A stretch of DNA of 27,684 nucleotides, from the UHGV virus genome UHGV-0027489. The stretch is one strand, 5' to 3'. Source of the stretch: a virus. The position numbers and the translations under genes were made by a program. Below, one piece after another: positions 2,170 through 25,774 of the stretch. The notes under the pieces were generated by a model, which had not been told where the DNA came from, did no database searches, and saw only the letters and a list, made by a program, of their open reading frames with translations. How positions within the stretch are numbered: position 1 is the first letter of the stretch; every line of letters begins with the position of its first letter.

Positions 2170-3318
2170 ATGAGTTTTTTCTATGATTTTAGCGTATATC
2201 AGCTTATTGCATTCTTAATTTTTATTTTTTTTGTATTTCTTATTCCTGTGAAATCAGGGATAGTAAACAATTCACAAAACAATATTTTGTGGCTTGAAGG
2301 TCTTAGGGGTGTGGCATGTATTATGGTTTTTTTCAATCATTTTGCTTACTACTTACCTACGATAGGGATAACAAACCAAAACATTCCATATAAAATAATG
2401 CCGATATATGATAATTTTGGCTCATTAGGGGTGGAGATATTTTTCGCAATTACCGGGTTCCTTTTTTTATCAAGAATAAAAAATGTAAAAAGCGCGGATG
2501 ATTTTATGATGAAGAGAATAAAACGACTAGCACCTGCGTTTTTATTTTTTGCATTGATAAACATGGCAGTGTTTATAATATTTATGTCTGATGGAGCTAG
2601 TCTTGATGATTACAGAAAAGCACTTATTCAGCTATTAGCGTTTGGGTTTCTTGGCGGTGGAATTTTCTTCAAAGACTCATGGATACACAGTATTGGCGTG
2701 GTATCATGGACTCTGCCGTATGAATGGATTTTCTATATATCAATTGTAGCTATATCTCTTTTTTATAAAAATGAAAAATATATTTCCATAACACTGTTTA
2801 TTATTGGTATTTATACTATAGAAAAGTCTAATTTAAATACAGATATGTTTTTATTTTTCATTAGTGGTGCGGTTGGTAAAGTTGTTTACGATAATTCACT
2901 AAACCATGATAAAAAATCTTGGAAGTTGATTATATCAATTACAGCAATATTAACATTGCTCACCTGCATTTATCAAAAAGATGACGGATACGGGATTTAT
3001 AGATTTATTTTAGTAACAATATTATTCTCCAGCATTTGCTACATTAAGCCTAAGTTTCTTCAATCCAGCAACATAGTATTGATTGGTATGATTAGCTATA
3101 GCATATACCTTAGCCACCAAGCTATTATATATCTATCTTTATACGTATTTAAAATAATTGGGTTTAACCTATATGAAATAGGAATCCTTTCCTACTTCAT
3201 TATGTCAATAATTACATTTATGATTACTGTGATAATATCACTAATAACCTATAAAAACATTGAGTTGAGATTCAACTCAAAAGTTAATAGTTCGCTACAA
3301 GTCTCGCATACCAAGTAG
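2170..3318 (+). CDS. Integral-membrane acyltransferase (acyltransferase-3/OafA-like), probable O-antigen acetyltransferase for seroconversion
   Basis: 382 aa, about 10 predicted TM helices; N-terminal WLEGLRGVACIMVFFNHF region typical of acyltransferase family 3; visibly AT-rich relative to flanking phage DNA; opposite strand to the late operon; adjacent to the tailspike as in phiV10-like phages (from memory). Confidence 0.75.
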   Translation: MSFFYDFSVYQLIAFLIFIFFVFLIPVKSGIVNNSQNNILWLEGLRGVACIMVFFNHFAYYLPTIGITNQNIPYKIMPIYDNFGSLGVEIFFAITGFLFLSRIKNVKSADDFMMKRIKRLAPAFLFFALINMAVFIIFMSDGASLDDYRKALIQLLAFGFLGGGIFFKDSWIHSIGVVSWTLPYEWIFYISIVAISLFYKNEKYISITLFIIGIYTIEKSNLNTDMFLFFISGAVGKVVYDNSLNHDKKSWKLIISITAILTLLTCIYQKDDGYGIYRFILVTILFSSICYIKPKFLQSSNIVLIGMISYSIYLSHQAIIYLSLYVFKIIGFNLYEIGILSYFIMSIITFMITVIISLITYKNIELRFNSKVNSSLQVSHTK

Positions 3319-5549: not shown

Positions 5550-5566
5550 ATTACCTTTCAGGTAAT
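5550..5566. promoter_or_regulatory. Operator-like palindrome ATTACCT-TTC-AGGTAAT (copy A)
   Basis: Perfect 7-bp inverted repeat with a 3-bp spacer; a 16-bp identical copy lies at 22521-22536; both sit upstream of plus-strand moron units and ~90-105 bp upstream of minus-strand gene starts. Confidence 0.5.
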
Positions 5567-5602
5567 TTGCAAAACGTGCTGGATAGCAAACAAATTATTT
5601 GC

Positions 5603-5622
5603 TACTGTATAAATATACAGTT
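5603..5622 (+). promoter_or_regulatory. LexA (SOS) box
   Basis: TACTGTATAAATATACAGTT matches the E. coli LexA consensus TACTGTATATATATACAGTA at 18 of 20 positions (CTGT-N8-ACAG with AT-rich spacer); lies 20 bp upstream of ATG 5642 and overlaps a TATAAAT -10-like hexamer. Confidence 0.65.
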
Positions 5623-5641
5623 ATTGCATGGAGAAGATAAG

Positions 5642-5899
5642 ATGCAGCAGTATCACTATCCACTGGAAGACGGATTTACCGAAAGGATTCACACGCCGGG
5701 AGGCGTCAGGTCACTGGTGGATGGATCGCACTTGATGAAATTACTCCGGGATCTCGATAAAGATGGATTTAATGTCGATGGCCCACTTGCCGAACTGACT
5801 GCACTGATTAACTACGTCACCAGCTCACAGATGTCTATGCAGGATCTGCAAACACATCTAGACTATTGTGCCGAACAATTACGAAAACAAACCACATAA
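5642..5899 (+). CDS. Small SOS-regulated protein of unknown function (85 aa); candidate antirepressor or other SOS-induced moron product
   Basis: ATG 5642 preceded by GGAGAAG RBS at 6-nt spacing; the track's upstream start at 5519 would place the operator elements and LexA box inside the ORF, so I prefer 5642; opposite strand to the structural operon; no family recognised. Confidence 0.5.
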   Translation: MQQYHYPLEDGFTERIHTPGGVRSLVDGSHLMKLLRDLDKDGFNVDGPLAELTALINYVTSSQMSMQDLQTHLDYCAEQLRKQTT

Positions 5900-18538: not shown

Positions 18539-19531
18539 TTACACCACACGGGCTTCTGTTTCCAGAAGCGCATCAGTTTCACGGATTGGTACACCACGGA
18601 ATGAAGTCCACCACTCGCCTTCTGTCTCTTTTACGCTGATCGCCAGAGATGTTTTCTCCAGAGATTGCAGATCAAGAGCCTGGCCTACAGTGCGGTTCAT
18701 GTAGAACACCGGGCGACCCATTCCACGGTTTGGAATGCGATGCAGTGCTTTAACCATCAACTTCGCAATATTTGCGGCAGAGGAAGGTTCTGAAAGATTG
18801 CTGACATCGATGTTTGCAATGCGAACAACATAACGCCAGTCACGCAGAGCAAGTCCGTTGTCCCATTTGTAATGGGTGCGATAGCCTTCGTACTTGCCGC
18901 CATTAGCATCTTCCAGTGTCACCTGGCCTTTATCTTCCATCTGGATGCCAGCCTTCTGCCCTTTCGGGAAGATGCCATGCACGGTGTTTCCGCCCCACAC
19001 CACTAACCAGATTGAGGTGTTATCTGTACCCGTGCCACCAGCATCAATGATGTTCTGAGCATTACCCGCAGACAGGCTGGAATAGCGGGAGGACAGTCCC
19101 ATAAACTGCTGAGGGTTAACGCTGGAATCACCATAAAACAGCGTCTGCGCCATCTGCTGATTCATCGCTTCAATAAATGCGCGGTCTTCAGACAGGCGGA
19201 ATTCAGCGGTATTGCCGTTCAGATCAGCCAGTGACTTATCGACTTCAGCATAGGTTTCCAGCATGCCAACGGAATCGGTTACCTGCACTGTGGTTGATTT
19301 GCTTGGCTGTACGCCATAGTTCAGCAAACGCCAGGTAGCTGAAGGTAAACCAGAACGAATGGTGGTTCGGTGTCCGGTAGGAAGGTTCCCTTCGACAAAA
19401 GGCATATCCTGAAGGATCGGGTTAGTTTGACCGAGAAGCTCGATAATCTTATCGACTTTCCCGTTTGGATCGACGCGCTTACCCCAGTCAGCCAGCGTTA
19501 GCGCAGTTAAGCCTTTAACAGCCATTGTCAT
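18539..19531 (-). CDS. Major capsid protein
   Basis: 330-aa ORF immediately downstream of the acidic scaffold-like gene and followed by a stem-loop; size and position typical of an HK97-fold major capsid protein. Confidence 0.65.
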   Translation of the reverse strand: MTMAVKGLTALTLADWGKRVDPNGKVDKIIELLGQTNPILQDMPFVEGNLPTGHRTTIRSGLPSATWRLLNYGVQPSKSTTVQVTDSVGMLETYAEVDKSLADLNGNTAEFRLSEDRAFIEAMNQQMAQTLFYGDSSVNPQQFMGLSSRYSSLSAGNAQNIIDAGGTGTDNTSIWLVVWGGNTVHGIFPKGQKAGIQMEDKGQVTLEDANGGKYEGYRTHYKWDNGLALRDWRYVVRIANIDVSNLSEPSSAANIAKLMVKALHRIPNRGMGRPVFYMNRTVGQALDLQSLEKTSLAISVKETEGEWWTSFRGVPIRETDALLETEARVV

Positions 19532-20241: not shown

Positions 20242-20534
20242 TCCTGTTCACTGGCCTCTTTGGCCATCTTCAAATACTGTTCAGGGCAATGCGCCATAAC
20301 GCGCTGAAACAGTTCCAGCGCCAGATTGCGTTGCCCCTCATTAAATGCCATTGCCATAGCGTCCATCGGTGAGATAGCGGAAAACACACGGCCTTTCTCC
20401 AGCACCGACCAGACAACGCGACGCCCCTGTTCACTGCTCATGACAAAGCGAATGTCATCAATTTCACGCTGTGCCATGTCACGTTGCTTACGGGCGTTTT
20501 CTTCTTTCAGTTGATCATCTTCGTAATCTGTCAT
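20238..20534 (-). CDS. Small head-assembly-region protein (98 aa), unknown function
   Basis: ORF between portal and scaffold, overlapping both by 4 nt (translational coupling). Confidence 0.4.
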   Translation of the reverse strand: MTDYEDDQLKEENARKQRDMAQREIDDIRFVMSSEQGRRVVWSVLEKGRVFSAISPMDAMAMAFNEGQRNLALELFQRVMAHCPEQYLKMAKEASEQE

Positions 20535-22210
20535 TGTGATTGCCCACCCTGACCACTAACTGCATTCGCCATAGCTGACAAAACACTCGGATCCGAAGTT
20601 TTAGCTTCGCTTAGCGTCTTGGCGCCCTGTGCCGCCGCCATTCCCATCGCCATCATTTGTTGCTGCTGTTGCTGCTGTGCCCGTTGCTGGCGAGCCTGCT
20701 CAACCTGTTCCTGCGGAACAATGACGGTTGGAGACACTCCGGACATATCAGCGAATGCATCGATCGCCTGATCAACGTTGAGTTTGTCGAGAGCTTCTGG
20801 TTTCGCTTGCGCAAGTTGACCAATGAAGTTGACCGTAGACGCCAGACTGGACAGGCCGATAGACTTCTGCGCCTGAGCCATGACGGAAATGTATTCGACC
20901 TTCAGGGGCATGCCTTCCATCGCGTCAGGCGGTGGCGGCAGCATGTTTTTACGCACCATCATCGAGAAAGCGCGGTCAATGAGAGGATTAAGACATTCGT
21001 CGTTCAGACGCTCCAGAACCGGCCCCAACATCAGAAGCTTTTCTTCTTTCATTTCGATCACTGCTTCAACAGGCATCGAGCGGGTATTGATGTTCTGCAA
21101 CATCATGAACAGATCGACAAAGTAGGCGCTGTTAATGATTTGGCGAGTGTCCTGAATGTCTGCTACCAGATCTGCTGTACTGGGGTTAACCAGATAAGCA
21201 GGCCTGAAACCATCCTGACCAGTAATCTGATCGATATACGTGATGTCGCCAGGAAGAAGGGAGGCGCGCTGATTCTTGAGGGAAGTCGGAGCAACCATCG
21301 GCGGATTGGTGGCTTTATCAATCAACTGCGACTTGCGCTTCTGGAGAAGCTGCAATGCCTTAACAGGTCCAAGCGCCAGCATACCCGGGCATGATGATCC
21401 ATAAACATCTTCGCCGTTAACTTCCCAGCGCGGAGCCATAATTGGAAACTCATCGAATCCGGACTCACGCAACAACTTGTCGTTATCGCCACCAACCTCG
21501 TAATAAACCGATTTGAATGGCTTGTTCTTGCTATCCAGCTTCGATGTATCGCGGTCAATGTTCGGGTAAACCGAATGCATCACTTCGATCCACTTCTCGT
21601 AGGTGCCGCTTTCCCACATGCTTTTTACGGATTCGCTGACGTTATTTAGCCCGAACTCCTGAACAAGCTGACGAACAGTCATAGAGAACTTGCGAAAACA
21701 GGTGTCAACACTGCCACGAGGTGAGTTAGCCAGGTAGTAACTGCCTATCGGGAATGGCATTGTGCGAATGATGTCCTCGTCATCCTCCAGCACTGCCATT
21801 GCACCAGTGCTGTATGTGCCGAGGCTTCCGTATAACTGCGGCAGCGACTGATAGAGATTCGACTTATTGAACATATCGTTCATGCGGTTCTGCACCGCCT
21901 CAAGCCACAACTTAACAGGGCCATAATCCATCATTTCAGGATCTGGCGTAGCCAGGCGAAACCACGGACGCGCGGGGCTTGTGATGCCTGACATCATGCC
22001 GCTGGCGAGAGTGCGCGCCGCCATAGTCCCGGTCGAATCAATAATGCGTGTATTGCGTCGATCGTTACGGTTGACCTCAGAAGTCAGAAAGCGGGAACCA
22101 CGCGGGTTGATGTAATCACTCAACTCGCGCCAGTGCGGCTCAAACGACTGACGCTCGCTTTCAAGTTGTGCGAACTGTTTGTTCAATCGCTCTTTAGTTG
22201 TTTCCGCCAT
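20531..22210 (-). CDS. Portal protein
   Basis: 559-aa ORF downstream of the terminase genes and upstream of scaffold/capsid; C-terminal poly-Gln/Ala/Met low-complexity tail; RBS context GGAGTCATTGAAATG. Confidence 0.65.
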   Translation of the reverse strand: MAETTKERLNKQFAQLESERQSFEPHWRELSDYINPRGSRFLTSEVNRNDRRNTRIIDSTGTMAARTLASGMMSGITSPARPWFRLATPDPEMMDYGPVKLWLEAVQNRMNDMFNKSNLYQSLPQLYGSLGTYSTGAMAVLEDDEDIIRTMPFPIGSYYLANSPRGSVDTCFRKFSMTVRQLVQEFGLNNVSESVKSMWESGTYEKWIEVMHSVYPNIDRDTSKLDSKNKPFKSVYYEVGGDNDKLLRESGFDEFPIMAPRWEVNGEDVYGSSCPGMLALGPVKALQLLQKRKSQLIDKATNPPMVAPTSLKNQRASLLPGDITYIDQITGQDGFRPAYLVNPSTADLVADIQDTRQIINSAYFVDLFMMLQNINTRSMPVEAVIEMKEEKLLMLGPVLERLNDECLNPLIDRAFSMMVRKNMLPPPPDAMEGMPLKVEYISVMAQAQKSIGLSSLASTVNFIGQLAQAKPEALDKLNVDQAIDAFADMSGVSPTVIVPQEQVEQARQQRAQQQQQQQMMAMGMAAAQGAKTLSEAKTSDPSVLSAMANAVSGQGGQSQ

Positions 22211-22224
22211 TTCAATGACTCCGG

Positions 22225-22431
22225 TTACTGACCAAGCAGCGTTTTACCGCTGGTATTAGCGGTTGATGTGTCGCCCTGAGAACCGGTAAGCAGCGTAGAA
22301 CTACGACCAGCAGCAGCGCGACGGCGACGTGTTTCTTCGTCGCGGGCATCAACAACGGCGGCATCCTGCTCCTGTGGTGCTGCCTGAACTTCTGGTGTTG
22401 CAGGCACTGATGGTGAGCTACCCATGCACAT
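22225..22431 (-). CDS. Small hydrophilic protein (68 aa) preceding the portal gene
   Basis: ATG 22431 with a GGAG RBS in a 15-nt context nearly identical to the portal's; preferred over the overlapping 79-aa frame (22212-22451), whose translation looks non-protein-like. Confidence 0.4.
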   Translation of the reverse strand: MCMGSSPSVPATPEVQAAPQEQDAAVVDARDEETRRRRAAAGRSSTLLTGSQGDTSTANTSGKTLLGQ

Positions 22432-22457
22432 ATCAATGACTCCGTACGCAATTAAAT

Positions 22458-22480
22458 TATTACCAATTTAACCACATATG
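22458..22480. promoter_or_regulatory. Conserved 23-bp element TATTACC-N5-AACCACATATG (copy B)
   Basis: 18 of 23 identity to 5499-5521; intergenic, between the 68-aa gene start and the tRNA-region promoter. Confidence 0.45.
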
Positions 22481-22499
22481 ATTTATTTATCGTAGGTAG

Positions 22500-22537
22500 T
22501 TGACATTTAACGCACAAATTATTACCTTTCAGGTAAG
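22500..22537 (+). promoter_or_regulatory. Putative promoter (TTGACA -35) overlapping operator-like palindrome ATTACCTTTCAGGTAA (copy B)
   Basis: Consensus -35 hexamer TTGACA at 22500-22505; the 16-bp palindrome at 22521-22536 is identical to 5550-5565 and overlaps where a -10 would lie. Confidence 0.45.
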
Positions 22538-22858
22538 TAAAGGGTTCATTCCGGTTATTAACCTGACTTGCTTGTCGTTAAATTGAACAGGTGGAGTGAG
22601 CTTTTATTTTGAGCAGTACGGCGTATGGCACATGCGCCGATAGCGGTCTGGGTACGTTTAAGGGGCACCCTCCCTTGCTCGGGCAAACGAACCAGGTAGC
22701 CGGAATGTGCAAGTCAAGCGGTTTTATTCCGCGCACGGGGATTCACCATCCCGGCGATTCGGTGTGACGCCTCGGAAGAGACGAGGGTACAACGATGAGA
22801 GCATTTATGGAGCCGCGACAAAGTGTGGCGCCTTAACAGGCTAAGTGCTCTCAGCGTT
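22538..22858 (+). other. ORF-free GC-rich leader upstream of the tRNA (candidate structured RNA / tRNA precursor leader)
   Basis: About 320 nt with no ORF of 60 aa or more on either strand in an otherwise densely coding genome; several local hairpins; contains a 13-codon mini-ORF (22795-22836, MRAFMEPRQSVAP) with a GAGGG RBS. Confidence 0.25.
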
Positions 22859-22935
22859 GTGGCATTAGCTCAGTTGGACAGAGCAACCGCCTTCTAAGCG
22901 GTTGGTCGCAGGTTCGAATCCTGCATGCCACGCCA
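22859..22935 (+). tRNA. tRNA-Arg (anticodon UCU)
   Basis: 77 nt by hand folding: acceptor stem GTGGCAT/ATGCCAC, D-arm GCTC-AGTTGGACA-GAGC, anticodon stem ACCGC/GCGGT with loop CTTCTAA (anticodon TCT), T-arm GCAGG-TTCGAAT-CCTGC, discriminator G, encoded CCA. Resembles but is not identical to E. coli argU as I recall it. Confidence 0.85.
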
Positions 22936-22981
22936 GAATCACGCCTAAGGACCGTGATGCCAGAAGTTCCAGGTGCTTGGC

Positions 22982-23021
22982 GGTGATAGTTTCCCTTGAA
23001 GGACTATCACCGCACTTTTTA
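22982..23021 (+). terminator. Intrinsic terminator downstream of the tRNA
   Basis: GGTGATAGT-N12-ACTATCACC 9-bp stem followed by GCAC then TTTTT, about 45 nt after the tRNA 3' end. Confidence 0.45.
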
Positions 23022-23098
23022 CAGCAGGACGCCATTGCGATGACTTCATGCTGTAAACCCGTACAGCCACGGAAGGCATAACTCATTGCTTCCAGTTC

Positions 23099-23122
23099 GC
23101 CCGGTTCGCCGGGCATTTTTTT
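23099..23122 (+). terminator. Intrinsic terminator / attenuator immediately upstream of the 123-aa gene
   Basis: GCCCGG-TTCG-CCGGGC (6-bp stem, TTCG tetraloop) followed by ATTTTTTT; ends about 12 nt before ATG 23134 and abuts its RBS. Confidence 0.55.
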
Positions 23123-23133
23123 AAGGTGAGATT

Positions 23134-23505
23134 ATGAACGACCAGCAAATCGAAAAAGAAATCGTTGAGAAAGGCAAAACGGCACCGCGCGTTACGCCAG
23201 ACCATATCGAAGGCATTATTGCTCAGGAGGCATATTTCACAGCAGAAGATGGTGCCTTTGGCAAAGCCATAAAAGCGAAACATACTGGCGGAGAGGTAAA
23301 CTACCAGCCGCACGAATCACTTTCTCTGCTGACGTTCTGCGTCCTGGTGCTGCGCAACGGCTTCACCGTCACCGGAGAAAGCGCCTGTGCAAGCCCGGAA
23401 AACTTTGATGCAGAAATTGGTCGGAAGATTGCCCGGCAGAATGCTGTAAACAAAATCTGGATGCTCGAAGGTTACTTGCTGAAGCAGAAGCTAAGCGAGC
23501 AATAA
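23134..23505 (+). CDS. Conserved small phage protein (123 aa), possibly N4 gp49 / Sf6 gp66 family; function unknown
   Basis: AAGGTGAG RBS before the ATG; motif block NGFTVTGESACASPENFDAEIGRKIA...IWMLEGYLL looks domain-like and matches my recollection of the Gp49-like family (unverified); opposite strand to the flanking terminase and portal genes. Confidence 0.5.
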   Translation: MNDQQIEKEIVEKGKTAPRVTPDHIEGIIAQEAYFTAEDGAFGKAIKAKHTGGEVNYQPHESLSLLTFCVLVLRNGFTVTGESACASPENFDAEIGRKIARQNAVNKIWMLEGYLLKQKLSEQ

Positions 23506-23525: not shown

Positions 23526-23552
23526 AGCCAGCCTATGAGCTGGCTTTGTTTT
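23526..23552 (+). terminator. Intrinsic terminator after the 123-aa gene
   Basis: AGCCAGC-ctatga-GCTGGCT stem-loop followed by TTGTTTTAT. Confidence 0.5.
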
Positions 23553-23595: not shown

Positions 23596-25071
23596 TTAAG
23601 CATAGGGATCGTAATCTGTGATGGCCTTGCCTTGCTGGTTCTGCTGACCGGGAATTCGCAGACGCTTCGACACAGGGAACGCAAACGTCAGCAGTAGCGC
23701 ATCGCCTTTACCAGGAGAACGCCCAAGTCGCTCTTTGATATCTTCCTTCGGTTCGATAACGATTTTACCGTCCACTCGAACTTTGTACTCTGCCGCCGAC
23801 AGGTCGTCTGCAGTTTCCTGGTCATCCAGCATGCCGCCCAGCCTCAGCCATGTCTTACATGAGTTGAACATCTCCCCACGCTTGTTGAGCATCTGCGGGT
23901 CAGTAGACGCGCCACCGAACGGAACAAGTTGCCATGTACGACCCCAGCCGTCACCGATTGACTTCAGACCAGTTCCGTAACCGAAGTCGATGAACACTGC
24001 GTCAGCCTGGTACTGGTCTTCAAAGTCAGCGATACGCTTCGCCATAATCAGATCGTCGGTGGTCTTGTTACCAGTCCATAGCACCTTACTGTGCAGCCCC
24101 TGCCGCAGGTATATCACCGCGTCATCAACGCCTGAGTATGCCGGGTCAACGCCGATTATCACCGGAGCATGTGCAACCTGCACAGCGGTGACCACCCGTT
24201 TCATTGCCTCGTCAGTAAGTCCGGTAGGGATAAACTGCAATTCGGATGCATCCGGGAATATGCCGCGCACACGGATTTTAACGAAGTCGCTGTCTTCCCC
24301 GTAGTCATCAACCCATTTCTGCAACTGCTGTTTGTTAGTGCCTTCCACCGTCCGGCTGTCAATCTGCGCAGTTTTCCAGCGGTGTTTATATTTGCGGAAA
24401 CATTCGCGAAAACGCCCGGTGTTACGTGTAGGGTTTCCGAACGCCACCCAGATAATCTCAGTGTCTTCGTCCGTAAGCGCACCCTCAGCAACTTCCCACA
24501 CCAGATCCGCAATGTTCGACGCTTCATCGAATACCACGATGATGCGTTTGCGCTCGTTGTGTAGTCCGGCGAATGCCTCAGTGTTGTGCTCAGACCAGGG
24601 TATTGCGTCAGCCCGCCACCGCTTGTCGTGCCCAGGGTCATTGCTGTACATCGCAGTAGCGGTACAGGTAAACCAGTCTTTCGTGATAGCAAGGTTCGAC
24701 CACTTGATAATTTCCGGCCAGGTCTTCGTTCGTAGCTGGTTGTCGGTGTTGGCGGTCACCACGATCTTACAATCCTCGCAAGTGGACATGCCCCAGTTGA
24801 TCAGCATTGAGATGAATGCGGATTTACCAATACCGTGACCAGAAGCGCGTGCCAGCATAAGCGGCTGATAGCGCGTCTCTGGATTCTGCAGGTGATCACG
24901 TATCTCTCGGAACGCATCAGCCTGCCACTGACGTGGGCCGGTAGCATGTGCCAGTTCAGTCCCCTCTTCCCCCCACGGGAACGCATAGAGGGCATAGCCA
25001 AGCGGATCGTGAGTGAACCCTGCAATATCCTCGATCAACTGCTCTTCAGGAGATAACGCTGTATCTGTCAC
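23596..25071 (-). CDS. Terminase large subunit
   Basis: 491 aa; Walker A-like ASGHGIGKS near the N-terminal ATPase region, acidic nuclease-like C-terminal half; start overlaps the stop of the small-terminase gene by 4 nt; followed by the portal after the moron insert. Confidence 0.8.
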   Translation of the reverse strand: MTDTALSPEEQLIEDIAGFTHDPLGYALYAFPWGEEGTELAHATGPRQWQADAFREIRDHLQNPETRYQPLMLARASGHGIGKSAFISMLINWGMSTCEDCKIVVTANTDNQLRTKTWPEIIKWSNLAITKDWFTCTATAMYSNDPGHDKRWRADAIPWSEHNTEAFAGLHNERKRIIVVFDEASNIADLVWEVAEGALTDEDTEIIWVAFGNPTRNTGRFRECFRKYKHRWKTAQIDSRTVEGTNKQQLQKWVDDYGEDSDFVKIRVRGIFPDASELQFIPTGLTDEAMKRVVTAVQVAHAPVIIGVDPAYSGVDDAVIYLRQGLHSKVLWTGNKTTDDLIMAKRIADFEDQYQADAVFIDFGYGTGLKSIGDGWGRTWQLVPFGGASTDPQMLNKRGEMFNSCKTWLRLGGMLDDQETADDLSAAEYKVRVDGKIVIEPKEDIKERLGRSPGKGDALLLTFAFPVSKRLRIPGQQNQQGKAITDYDPYA

Positions 25072-25664
25072 TGATTACCATCCTGACGTTCTTTGAGTCG
25101 CTTCCTGGCTGCCGCTATGCGATCAGCAATTGTCACATTCACATTAACATCCAGGCGTTCTTTGAATGCGTTGACGTCGACGTGCTTACCAATCAGTTCG
25201 AGGTTCTTCACCTTGTCAGGCCATTTAATTTTTTTGAGGATTGTCTCTATCGAATCCTCGTTCATGTTCATGATGGTCGATGACAGATCAAAGCCACTAA
25301 GCGTAGTGCGCCAGATTTTCGGCCACTCGCGGATTGGCTTAAGGCTCCCATCGTCGTTGAGGATATCAATCACGTCCATCTGGTCGATCTCCACCAGGCG
25401 CATGAGAACGTAATCGGCACTGACGCGCATTCGTTTGTTGCGCTCCTCCATCAACTCGGCAATCCGTTTTTGAATGCGTTCATCGCGCATCATGACACTG
25501 GCTTTAACTGCCGCTGTATTTGGGGAGAATCCTGCGTTAATCGCTGCCTGAGTCTGGTTTTCAGGCGTTTTGATGTATGACTGGCAATAAGCCTCCTGCA
25601 TTGCTGTTAGTGGCTTAAATTGCGTTGATTTGCGTTTATAGGTTTTAGGTTCAGCAGGCATCAT
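25068..25664 (-). CDS. Terminase small subunit
   Basis: Immediately upstream of and overlapping terL; basic helix-rich protein. Start set at ATG-ATG (25664) with GGTGG RBS; the track's longer ORF uses a TTG at 25742, which would add a Thr/Val-rich low-complexity extension. Confidence 0.6.
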   Translation of the reverse strand: MMPAEPKTYKRKSTQFKPLTAMQEAYCQSYIKTPENQTQAAINAGFSPNTAAVKASVMMRDERIQKRIAELMEERNKRMRVSADYVLMRLVEIDQMDVIDILNDDGSLKPIREWPKIWRTTLSGFDLSSTIMNMNEDSIETILKKIKWPDKVKNLELIGKHVDVNAFKERLDVNVNVTIADRIAAARKRLKERQDGNQ

Positions 25665-25774
25665 AACCACCGTGGTAATAGTTACCGTTGTGGTAATAGT
25701 ACCATGCAAAATAAAGCCGCCATAGTTGGCGGCAGTATTCAAAACCCATCAAATTCATCATGCATAATCTACTC

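Follow-up and report, generated by a model that had tools for sequence, protein, structure and literature searches.

A predicted pseudoknotted RNA conserved in the repressor-controlled early operons of temperate enterobacterial phages

Introduction

GOLLD and ROOL (Rfam; electron cryomicroscopy, PMC12286853) are multi-helix RNAs borne by phages and prophages. They contain pseudoknots, have a variable periphery and no partner protein gene, and are often found beside transfer RNA (tRNA) genes. The element described here resembles them. It was found in UHGV virus genome UHGV-0027489 (27,684 nucleotides (nt); "the window" refers to this whole stretch), at positions 22619-22858, directly before a tRNA-Arg(UCU) gene. 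From sequence comparison, it is identified as a copy of a new, widespread and strongly conserved folded RNA of temperate enterobacterial phages, and not as a passive tRNA leader. Unlike GOLLD and ROOL, it is found in Enterobacterales hosts and lies inside repressor-controlled early operons; it is also smaller (~245 nt in the window, >600 nt in the variant B copies). No Rfam 15 family matches it at the gathering score or at E<=10, the window copy and the whole mEp460 leader having been searched; only the tRNA was returned.

Three other classes of RNA are comparable. The put sites of HK022 (putL, putR) are folded RNAs just past the early promoters of a lambdoid phage devoid of N, with terminators downstream; an element of this kind would need no phage protein. 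They differ from the element in size (~70 nt and two stems, against ~170-245 nt with a pseudoknot) and in number (two per genome, against one). In addition, sister phages keep the terminators without the element. DicF, P1 c4 and P4 CI are RNAs embedded in polycistronic early phage transcripts and released by host ribonucleases (RNases). The c4 and P4 CI RNAs are matured by RNase P. These RNAs are ~50-80 nt long and act as antisense or base-pairing RNAs, whereas the element has a large, predicted pseudoknotted fold with invariant junctions. It has no Rfam C4 or DicF match, and no conserved target in cis for antisense pairing was found. T-boxes are structured leaders linked to a specific tRNA; the element shares with them a codon-like AGA loop triplet and a UGGC able to pair with the tRNA 3′ end. 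Its architecture differs, the order of the motifs is reversed, no terminator/antiterminator switch is seen and the carriers are phages of Gram-negative hosts. The resemblance consists of motifs of 3 and 4 nt only.

Phages are also known to carry tRNAs that read rare codons (argN/argO of Shiga toxin (Stx) phages, tRNAs of P1). The tRNA-Arg(UCU) of the window is a standard example. The novelty is the RNA fused to its 5′ side, a predicted pseudoknotted RNA of ~170 to >600 nt present in about a third of complete Escherichia coli genomes and in classic phages (P1, the phiV10/SPN1S group, mEp460, cdtI, Stx2c); none of the records examined annotates it.

Identification and distribution of the element

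The window belongs to a phiV10/epsilon15-like Uetakevirus; its region 22400-23140 is 97-99% identical to phiV10, phiv142-3, TL-2011b and the O157 typing phages 9 and 10. Among distant blastn matches to 22540-22858, the part 22618-22858 is ~83% identical to lambdoid phages (mEp460, cdtI, 2H10, Stx2c phages and others) and the part 22618-22780 is ~80% identical to P1, P7, D6, SJ46 and RCS47. Weaker matches were obtained in Enterobacter phage Tyrion, in Salmonella phages PAT1, 66FD and SPN1S, in several Klebsiella phages and in one "Stenotrophomonas" phage. Overall, the copies of lambdoid, P1-like and Uetakevirus genomes match at 70-84% identity.

A near-invariant 19-mer serves as a signature of the element:
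22695-22713, + strand: GGTAGCCGGAATGTGCAAG, spanning the 3′ strand of helix P2 and the junction J2/3.

The exact 19-mer is found in >120 IMG/VR contigs among the matches listed. GTDB species genomes, nearly all of them Enterobacteriaceae, carry it on 24 contigs. A second scan (120 loci) made with an independent 5′ motif gave 10 new loci: five with single-base variants of the 19-mer, four with the exact 19-mer and one truncated as in epsilon15. A similar sequence is carried by 1841 of 5426 complete E. coli genomes (34%; blastn), at 1921 chromosomal and 554 plasmid places. At the E. coli copies, nothing is annotated besides the adjacent tRNA and an occasional hypothetical open reading frame (ORF). 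No description of the element was found in the literature searched; it may be among the 10,006 unnamed candidates of an IMG/VR screen (PMC10690425).

When element-bearing stretches were searched with R1, a covariance model of the core with 159 positions, each gave exactly one copy. The window copy (22614-22789) scores 141.9 bits; those of mEp460, P1, phiv142-3 and Ayreon score similarly. No second, diverged copy was found in the 20.5 kb of mEp460 (immunity region and whole rightward arm) or in the P1 and phiv142-3 stretches searched.

Some copies or apparent copies deserve a separate mention. Variant B copies (L007, i.e. PAT1, L036, L037, L065, L075 and L098) are longer by 250-300 nt between P5 and P6, where there are more hairpins carrying a GGAAGAG loop, and the whole RNA exceeds 600 nt. 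A full-scoring copy (152.6 bits) is found on a 1.7-kb contig of a Bacillota metagenome-assembled genome (MAG; L151), which is probably mis-binned enterobacterial phage DNA. In an Oscillospiraceae MAG (L139), the 19-mer is a mere chance match (8.7 bits).

Structure and covariation

The element consists of a ~170-nt core (P1, P2, P3, an H-type pseudoknot and P5) followed by a long hairpin, P6, that ends at position +1 of the tRNA. In the core alignment, invariant blocks alternate with stretches of variable length. The fold, derived by hand, was tested on 40 copies (alignment A3), each <95% identical to one another; covariation is counted per sequence, not per evolutionary event. The predicted features are given below, a cell being one base pair in one copy.
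22619-22627 with 22631-22639, + strand: hairpin P1, loop GCA; 96.7% of cells pair, with G-C replaced by A-U in 15/40 copies and a U.G pair in 39/40.
22644-22646 with 22700-22702, + strand: P2a; the whole P2 arm extends over 22644-22702.
22647-22651 with 22692-22696, + strand: P2b; double changes at three pairs (C-G to U-A in 12/40 copies) and an invariant U.G pair.
22652-22691, + strand: tip of P2; variable, with a CCUUG-like loop and a length that differs by ~20-40 nt between copies.
22718-22732, + strand: P3, a short hairpin of the minimum free energy (MFE) fold; sequence and length vary.
22738-22742 with 22748-22752, + strand: stem S1 of the H-type pseudoknot (22738-22764); three pairs with double changes.
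22744-22747 (CACC, in the S1 loop) with 22761-22764 (GGUG), + strand: stem S2 of the pseudoknot; 100% of cells pair.
22770-22774 with 22782-22786, + strand: hairpin P5, CCUCG-GAAGAGA-CGAGG, its purine loop conserved; double changes at three pairs, each in 10/40 copies.

Standard pairs are formed in 94.8% of the cells, and 12 of the 31 pairs show changes on both sides (84 cells). The covariation score was reached by none of 500 shuffles, and pairing fell to 29-46% when the 3′ partners were slid by 1-3 columns. The pseudoknot is supported by the change of C-G to A-U in S2 in 5/40 copies, on at least three different S1 backgrounds. P2, S1 and P5 are recovered independently by RNAalifold. The covariation counts cover P1, P2, S1, S2 and P5; at P3 the alignment is out of register.

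RNAalifold also proposes an alternative at the 5′ side, in which GCACAU (22628-22633) pairs with AUGUGC (22705-22710). This pairing could be a second pseudoknot or an alternative fold; both sides are invariant, so that it lies beyond a covariation test.

The strand can be assigned from the conserved U.G pairs (39/40 and 40/40 copies). They would be C.A mismatches on the other strand, which indicates a functional RNA made from the + strand, as for the tRNA. Taken as a whole, the element is almost certainly a conserved structured RNA of the + strand.

Several known activities were considered for this RNA and rejected. By-eye comparison with hammerhead, HDV-like (hepatitis delta virus) and theta ribozymes gave no matching core or topology. 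Against a CsrA sponge, GGA motifs are neither enriched nor centred in loops. A mimic of the 3′ end of 16S ribosomal RNA was suggested by GAUUCACCAUCC, which resembles GGAUCACCUCC; this sequence is unconserved in other copies and is paired in the pseudoknot.

Hairpin P6 and coding potential

Two features overlap in the last part of the element:
22790-22803 with 22846-22859, + strand: basal helix of the long hairpin P6; its last G is nucleotide +1 of the tRNA.
22795-22836, + strand: 13-codon ORF, ATG AGA ... TAA, covering the 5′ strand and the tip of P6; not conserved.

The main alleles of P6 are CAACGAUGAGAGCA/UGCUCUCAGCGUUG and CAACAGGUAAGAGCA/UGCUCUUUCCGUUG, to which more compensated versions are added. 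Cognate strands have a mean energy of -18.3 kcal/mol, against -12.1 for non-cognate strands, and the cognate mean was reached by 0/10000 permutations. The tip is hypervariable (40-250 nt in other copies).

The sequence-only reading of this region had proposed that the leader may be a processed precursor, a regulatory RNA or a remnant of the insertion, and had tentatively suggested that the 13-codon ORF encodes a leader peptide sensing tRNA-Arg availability; such sensing would work by attenuation. The ORF does exist, with AGA as its second codon; GAGG stands 8-9 nt before its ATG and terminators follow the tRNA. It is not a conserved feature. Its ATG and AGA belong to one strand of the covarying helix P6, and the second allele (CAACAGGTAAGAGCA / TGCTCTTTCCGTTG) is devoid of the ATG, including in the tRNA-linked copies L026 and L101. 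The peptides are 3 to >30 amino acids (aa) long and differ in sequence. GAGG, the only Shine-Dalgarno-like sequence, is paired within P5. The attenuator, and with it the sensing of tRNA-Arg by a leader peptide, is therefore rejected: the ORF is absent from P6 allele 2 and variable elsewhere, and its ATG lies inside a conserved helix.

The suggestion of an insertion remnant, or of degraded coding sequence, fares no better. The element covaries, the lengths of the copies are evenly spread over the three mod-3 classes and none of the frames anchored on the 19-mer is open in >17/40 copies. Protein coding on either strand is rejected on the same frame and length statistics and on covariation. As most copies of the element have no tRNA, the combined model is hardly credible.

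Phage settings

The element is found in three unrelated phage types, in each of them in sense orientation within a repressor-controlled early operon: the leader of the early leftward (PL) operon of lambdoids, the gap between terminase and portal genes of Uetakeviruses, and the ban operon of P1. Among 154 loci, 70 have a same-strand cI-type repressor gene ending ~235 nt upstream of the 19-mer, ~39 are located in the Uetakevirus gap and ~12 are of the P1 type, immediately ahead of ban. Every context examined belongs to a phage or prophage. The sequence-only reading had described the position inside the structural operon as unusual; the terminase-portal gap turns out to be the normal site of this module in phiV10-like phages, and not that of a one-off insertion.

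In mEp460, the order is cI, the cI terminator, two operator motifs (TTGCAT..GCAA, 24 bp apart, also found at the right operator and overlapping a promoter) and the element, which is read from this arrangement as the leader of the PL operon. The core begins ~35-45 nt past the operator-bearing promoter in mEp460 and Ayreon, and a terminator precedes the first gene. An ORF annotated antisense to the element in mEp460 (mEp460_037, 122 aa; L002 2943-3311) is probably a spurious coding sequence. In P1, the element belongs to the C1-repressed ban operon, 14 nt after tRNA-Ile, ~95 nt before ban and 2.4 kb from the promoter. This single C1-controlled transcript (L003 269-370, 2497-2679) contains three tRNAs, a dicF-like region and the element.

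In the window, the element is surrounded by the following signals:
22500-22528, + strand: sigma-70-like promoter read from the sequence, TTGACA (22500-22505), 17-nt spacer, TACCTT (22523-22528).
22522-22536: operator-like palindrome TTACCTTTCAGGTAA, overlapping the -10 region.
22537-22618, + strand: lineage-specific 5′ leader with GTCGTTAAAT (22574-22583) and CATTCCGGTTA (22547-22557); it differs among Uetakeviruses.
22980-23020, + strand: terminator-like hairpin T1, 13-bp stem then ACTTTTT.
23099-23122, + strand: terminator-like hairpin T2, GCCCGG-TTCG-CCGGGC then ATTTTTTT; kept in epsilon15, which is devoid of the core.
23526-23545, + strand: terminator-like hairpin T3, after the 123-aa ORF.

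The promoter was missed by a consensus scanner because its -10 hexamer is weak; TTGACA and ATTACC are invariant across six Uetakeviruses. The palindrome is conserved in the alignment of Uetakeviruses and its equivalent in the epsilon15 record is annotated as a repressor binding site. Since a repressor operator overlaps the promoter, the element and the tRNA are probably made early after infection or induction, and not in the lysogen. Judged from the operators, the transcript that carries the element would be early and repressor-controlled in each of the three phage types. No ORF of >52 aa lies within 22500-22860, a region whose G+C content is 0.55-0.57 (0.49 for the window). The TTGACA site, the shared palindrome and the GC-rich, ORF-free stretch reported earlier before the tRNA are thus all present.

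This position is also that of a cis-acting control of elongation. In the main rival explanation, the nascent RNA would modify RNA polymerase, as do HK022 put or the Nus-dependent rrn/nut leaders, so that T1 and T2 (in lambdoids, the terminator before the yfdP-like gene) are passed. In favour of this, the element is invariably in sense orientation within its repressor-controlled early operon, and lambdoids have it at the place of nutL/putL, ~35-45 nt past PL. The RNA is separated from the first ORF by terminator-like hairpins, and an invariant core would suit binding of RNA polymerase or of a Nus factor. mEp460 has Q and no annotated N. Its record annotates no N-like partner and the first downstream ORF has neither a Pfam match nor an obvious Arg-rich N-terminus, no dedicated search having been made. 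The mEp phage collection was isolated as Nus-dependent (PMC11893012).

Other observations do not fit such a mechanism. The core is missing from SfV, PhiR49_1 and epsilon15, which have the same downstream terminators and genes. There is a single copy per phage and none in the early rightward (PR) operon. The element is unlike HK022 putL: R1 has no match in the two stretches of HK022 searched (L155, L156; PL/putL included), and the putL sequence shows no similarity. In P1, the element is far from the promoter, with no obvious terminator between it and ban. A simple census, with terminators downstream of the element at 41/103 loci and upstream at 51/103, was uninformative either way, the scanner missing terminators with long loops. 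The boxA consensus is CGCUCUUA / UGCUCUUUAACAA. In favour of the mechanism, allele 2 of P6 has a 3′ strand, UGCUCUUU, that precedes GUUGUGG and is similar to boxA plus a GU-rich boxC as these motifs are usually given. When compared directly, this strand reads UGCUCUUUCC and that of the window copy UGCUCUCAGC. It is base-paired and is replaced elsewhere (CGCCGU, GUCAUC and others), so that the boxA-like sequence is unconserved and P6 covaries as a helix. Antitermination by the element is considered possible, though rather unlikely.

An antisense role would be specific to the Uetakevirus setting. By pairing with the polycistronic late transcript (- strand) in the terminase-portal gap, the + strand RNA would govern how this transcript is processed or read through. 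The Uetakevirus unit does converge on the late operon, and the epsilon15 record has an RNase III site annotated at this place, on the strand of the late genes. This is highly improbable: the core is also present in the PL leaders of lambdoids and in the P1 ban operon, without any opposing operon, and conservation of G.U pairs and invariant junctions favour a folded RNA over a linear antisense.

Phages devoid of the core

SfV and PhiR49_1 share with mEp460 and Ayreon a P6-like hairpin, a GUUGUGGUGAA...CACCACAAC domain, a strong terminator, a long hairpin after it and early genes. Between PL and the P6-like hairpin, SfV carries orf33 with its own terminator and PhiR49_1 carries minus-strand genes; R1 found nothing in these stretches. 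Ayreon has an SfV-type PL region and carries the core. In epsilon15 (L004 2046-2119), only P1 and the start of P2 are left (31.5 bits). The deletion extends through the remainder of the element and the tRNA into T1, and leaves T2 and the gene after it in place. From these comparisons the element is classed as accessory: phages described as viable isolates manage without the core, with the same downstream terminators kept.

SfV-like PL leaders (L002 3238-3560, L158 ~1900-2130, L159, L160) have an unannotated backbone common to core-bearing and core-less phages. Its parts are a P6-like hairpin, a three-way domain GTTGTGGTGAA...CACCACAAC and a strong terminator, with a long hairpin ahead of a yfdP-like gene. 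The mEp460 leader, the sole leader of this type scanned, matches no Rfam family. In the epsilon15 record, the "RNaseIII" site of the opposite strand partly overlaps the remnant of the element.

Relation to tRNA genes

The tRNA that follows the element in the window is genuine:
22859-22935, + strand: tRNA-Arg(UCU), ARAGORN call with anticodon tct at position 35; the sole tRNA of the window.

Rfam tRNA model RF00005 gives 73.3 bits (gathering score 29), and the acceptor end is complete (...ATGCCAC-G-CCA, CCA encoded, last base 22935). The well-folded tRNA-Arg(UCU) of the sequence-only reading is therefore accepted by the prediction tools.

About a quarter of the unique variants of the element have a downstream tRNA, nearly always Arg(UCU); in a separate count, tRNA-Arg is found downstream at 23 of 118 unique loci. 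A directly downstream tRNA is Arg(UCU) in every case except one odd Ile(AAT) call. A tRNA lies directly upstream at 9/118 unique loci, the nine P1-type variants, and true T-arm relics occur in several more copies. This adjacency to tRNAs is shared with GOLLD and ROOL. The tRNA-linked copies are all in Uetakevirus-type contexts and therefore probably have one origin.

The link with a phage tRNA-Arg gene is not obligatory: mEp460 has the element and no tRNA gene in the 20.5 kb examined. A link to the host argU locus is not supported either. Host tRNA-Arg is present in all 5426 E. coli genomes and the element in only 34% of them, and the window tRNA is ~86% identical to the host tRNA-Arg genes. 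These distributions, with the absence of a tRNA from mEp460, imply that the element is no tRNA gene's own leader. Of the roles proposed earlier for the leader, that of a regulatory RNA comes closest to the evidence; a leader belonging to the tRNA is not borne out, the element being mostly found without it.

At 62 loci without tRNA (32 unique), a lambdoid domain occupies the exact place of the tRNA, with the same GUUG|UGG start and a closing stem GUUGUGGUG/CACCACAAC. Its 5′ hairpin, UGCGCAGGCUGAUGCGC, begins two nt after the 5′ strand and covaries as GCCCA/UGGGC. Its 3′ hairpin, GCCGGAGAUCAGCACCGGY, directly precedes the 3′ strand and covaries as GUCGG/CCGAC. The middle of the domain is variable. 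By its topology, this domain may be called tRNA-shaped.

A T-box-like leader was weighed against these data. It would sense host tRNA-Arg(UCU) through the AGA codon of the P5 loop and through the UGGC at the tip of P1, facing the GCCA of the tRNA 3′ end, and pairings would then switch downstream expression. The AGA triplet is present in the P5 loop of 40/40 copies, altered loops included, and UGGC is near-invariant. Mutually exclusive pairings exist (upper P1 or GCACAU/AUGUGC; the CAAC/GUUG base of P6 or the closing stem of the 3′ domain), and the directly downstream tRNAs are, with the exception given above, all Arg(UCU). Matches of 3 and 4 nt are nonetheless expected by chance in purine-rich loops. 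As AGA and UGGC never vary, these candidate contacts lie beyond a covariation test. The probable single origin of the tRNA-linked copies weakens the argument from tRNA identity, and P1 copies associate the same loop with tRNA-Ile. Rfam gives no T-box match at E<=10 over 22400-23140, and the core was not found to take part in any terminator/antiterminator alternative. Sensing of this kind is very unlikely.

Proposed role

The tentatively preferred explanation is that of a processed, accessory, host-directed RNA, made early, released by RNase P and acting on a conserved host component. The RNA would fold during transcription, co-transcribed with tRNA-Arg(UCU). RNase P would cut at the 5′ end of the tRNA (in lambdoids, at the tRNA-shaped domain), freeing a stable RNA of ~240-320 nt. 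Its invariant core and junctions would then bind something that is conserved throughout Enterobacterales, for example part of the machinery for transcription, translation or RNA processing, or a defence nuclease of the host. The phage would gain a non-essential, moron-like advantage, and the tRNA would be ordinary cargo that decodes AGA for AGA-rich tail and accessory genes. Cleavage by RNase P is suggested by the end of P6 at tRNA position +1, with U at -1, and by the tRNA-shaped domain found at the same place in lambdoids. In its logic such an RNA would be comparable to DicF, c4 or P4 CI, and in its association with tRNAs to GOLLD and ROOL. As it would be part of the first transcripts made on leaving lysogeny, the element probably has a role in early host takeover, in control of gene expression or in counter-defence.

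Some points weigh against this explanation. RNase P may cut less readily where a helix borders directly on its site. The Rfam tRNA model has no match to the tRNA-shaped lambdoid domain at E<=10; since this domain is also present in core-less SfV, it is not there only to release the core. The 5′ place in early operons, ahead of terminators, suits a cis-acting role equally well. No target or partner of the element was found, nor were expression, processing or binding data in the literature or resources searched.

In a related explanation, judged unlikely, the element would be tied to tRNAs as GOLLD and ROOL are. It would bind, sense, protect or sequester tRNA (e.g. tRNA-Arg(UCU), via the AGA loop of P5 and the UGGC tip) or, as a decoy, draw host enzymes away from their tRNA targets, and the fused tRNA or tRNA-shaped domain would be part of the working particle. 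If so, the element would be the first Gram-negative, genetically tractable member of this unexplained class. P1 and lambdoids are easy to manipulate, which makes the element a practical route to the role of phage RNAs beside tRNA genes, a question open for GOLLD and ROOL. It is worth adding to RNA family libraries.

Genes and other features of the window

The tRNA is on the strand opposite to the packaging and head genes, as had been noted. The neighbouring genes are as follows:
18539-19531, - strand: capsid, GP7.
20531-22210, - strand: portal, Head-tail_con.
22225-22431, - strand: 68-aa ORF.
23134-23505, + strand: downstream 123-aa ORF, Pfam Phage_gp49_66 (N4 Gp49 / Sf6 gene 66 family), E=8.6e-35.
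23596-25071, - strand: 491-aa ORF, large terminase by annotation in phiv142-3 and phiV10; no Pfam match.
25068-25742, - strand: small terminase, Terminase_2.

Over 29 ORFs of the window, AGA and AGG are used 7.0 and 3.6 times per 1000 codons. They cluster in tail, tailspike and accessory (acetyltransferase) genes; the capsid, portal and terminase genes contain no AGA. The E. coli averages are ~2 (AGA) and ~1 (AGG) per 1000, and use in the window is roughly three times as high. Compensation for the AGA/AGG codons of the phage by tRNA-Arg(UCU) is plausible. The rare-codon cargo proposed earlier is to this extent retained, on window counts set against general figures for the host. AGA also accounts for 5/7 of the Arg codons of an Acyl_transf_3 gene (2170-3318, + strand), an O-antigen acetylase-like moron as in phiV10.

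A second copy of the palindrome TTACCTTTCAGGTAA is found at 5551-5565 (four matches with <=1 mismatch in total, 0.49 expected). It is followed, 30 nt further, by TACTGTATAAATATACAGT (5597-5615), a near-consensus LexA (SOS) box just before the ATG at 5629 of an ORF that extends to 5899. The unit at 5551-5899 looks like an SOS-controlled unit of the antirepressor type.

Similarity of the 5′ leader to the lambdoid and P1 copies begins only at ~22612-22618, and the MFE fold pairs this leader with the core. CATTCCGGTTA is complementary over 11 nt (10 Watson-Crick pairs and one G.U) to TAGCCGGAATG (22697-22707), within the 19-mer; other lineages are devoid of it. This complementarity could mask the core or be due to chance. 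Hairpins with a GTCGTTAAAT loop flanked by AAAGCGC..GCGCTTTC stems recur in the window (22574-22583), in epsilon15 (L004 ~2005-2015) and in L014, L058 and L077. They look like another unnamed RNA module of early leaders.

The tRNA-Arg(UCU) itself is already known, being annotated in several phiV10-like records, and is worth annotating in all records of the phiV10 type. In the phiV10 RefSeq record (L171, 1966-2217), the tRNA is unannotated and an ORF, p04, is called opposite it; p04 is probably spurious.

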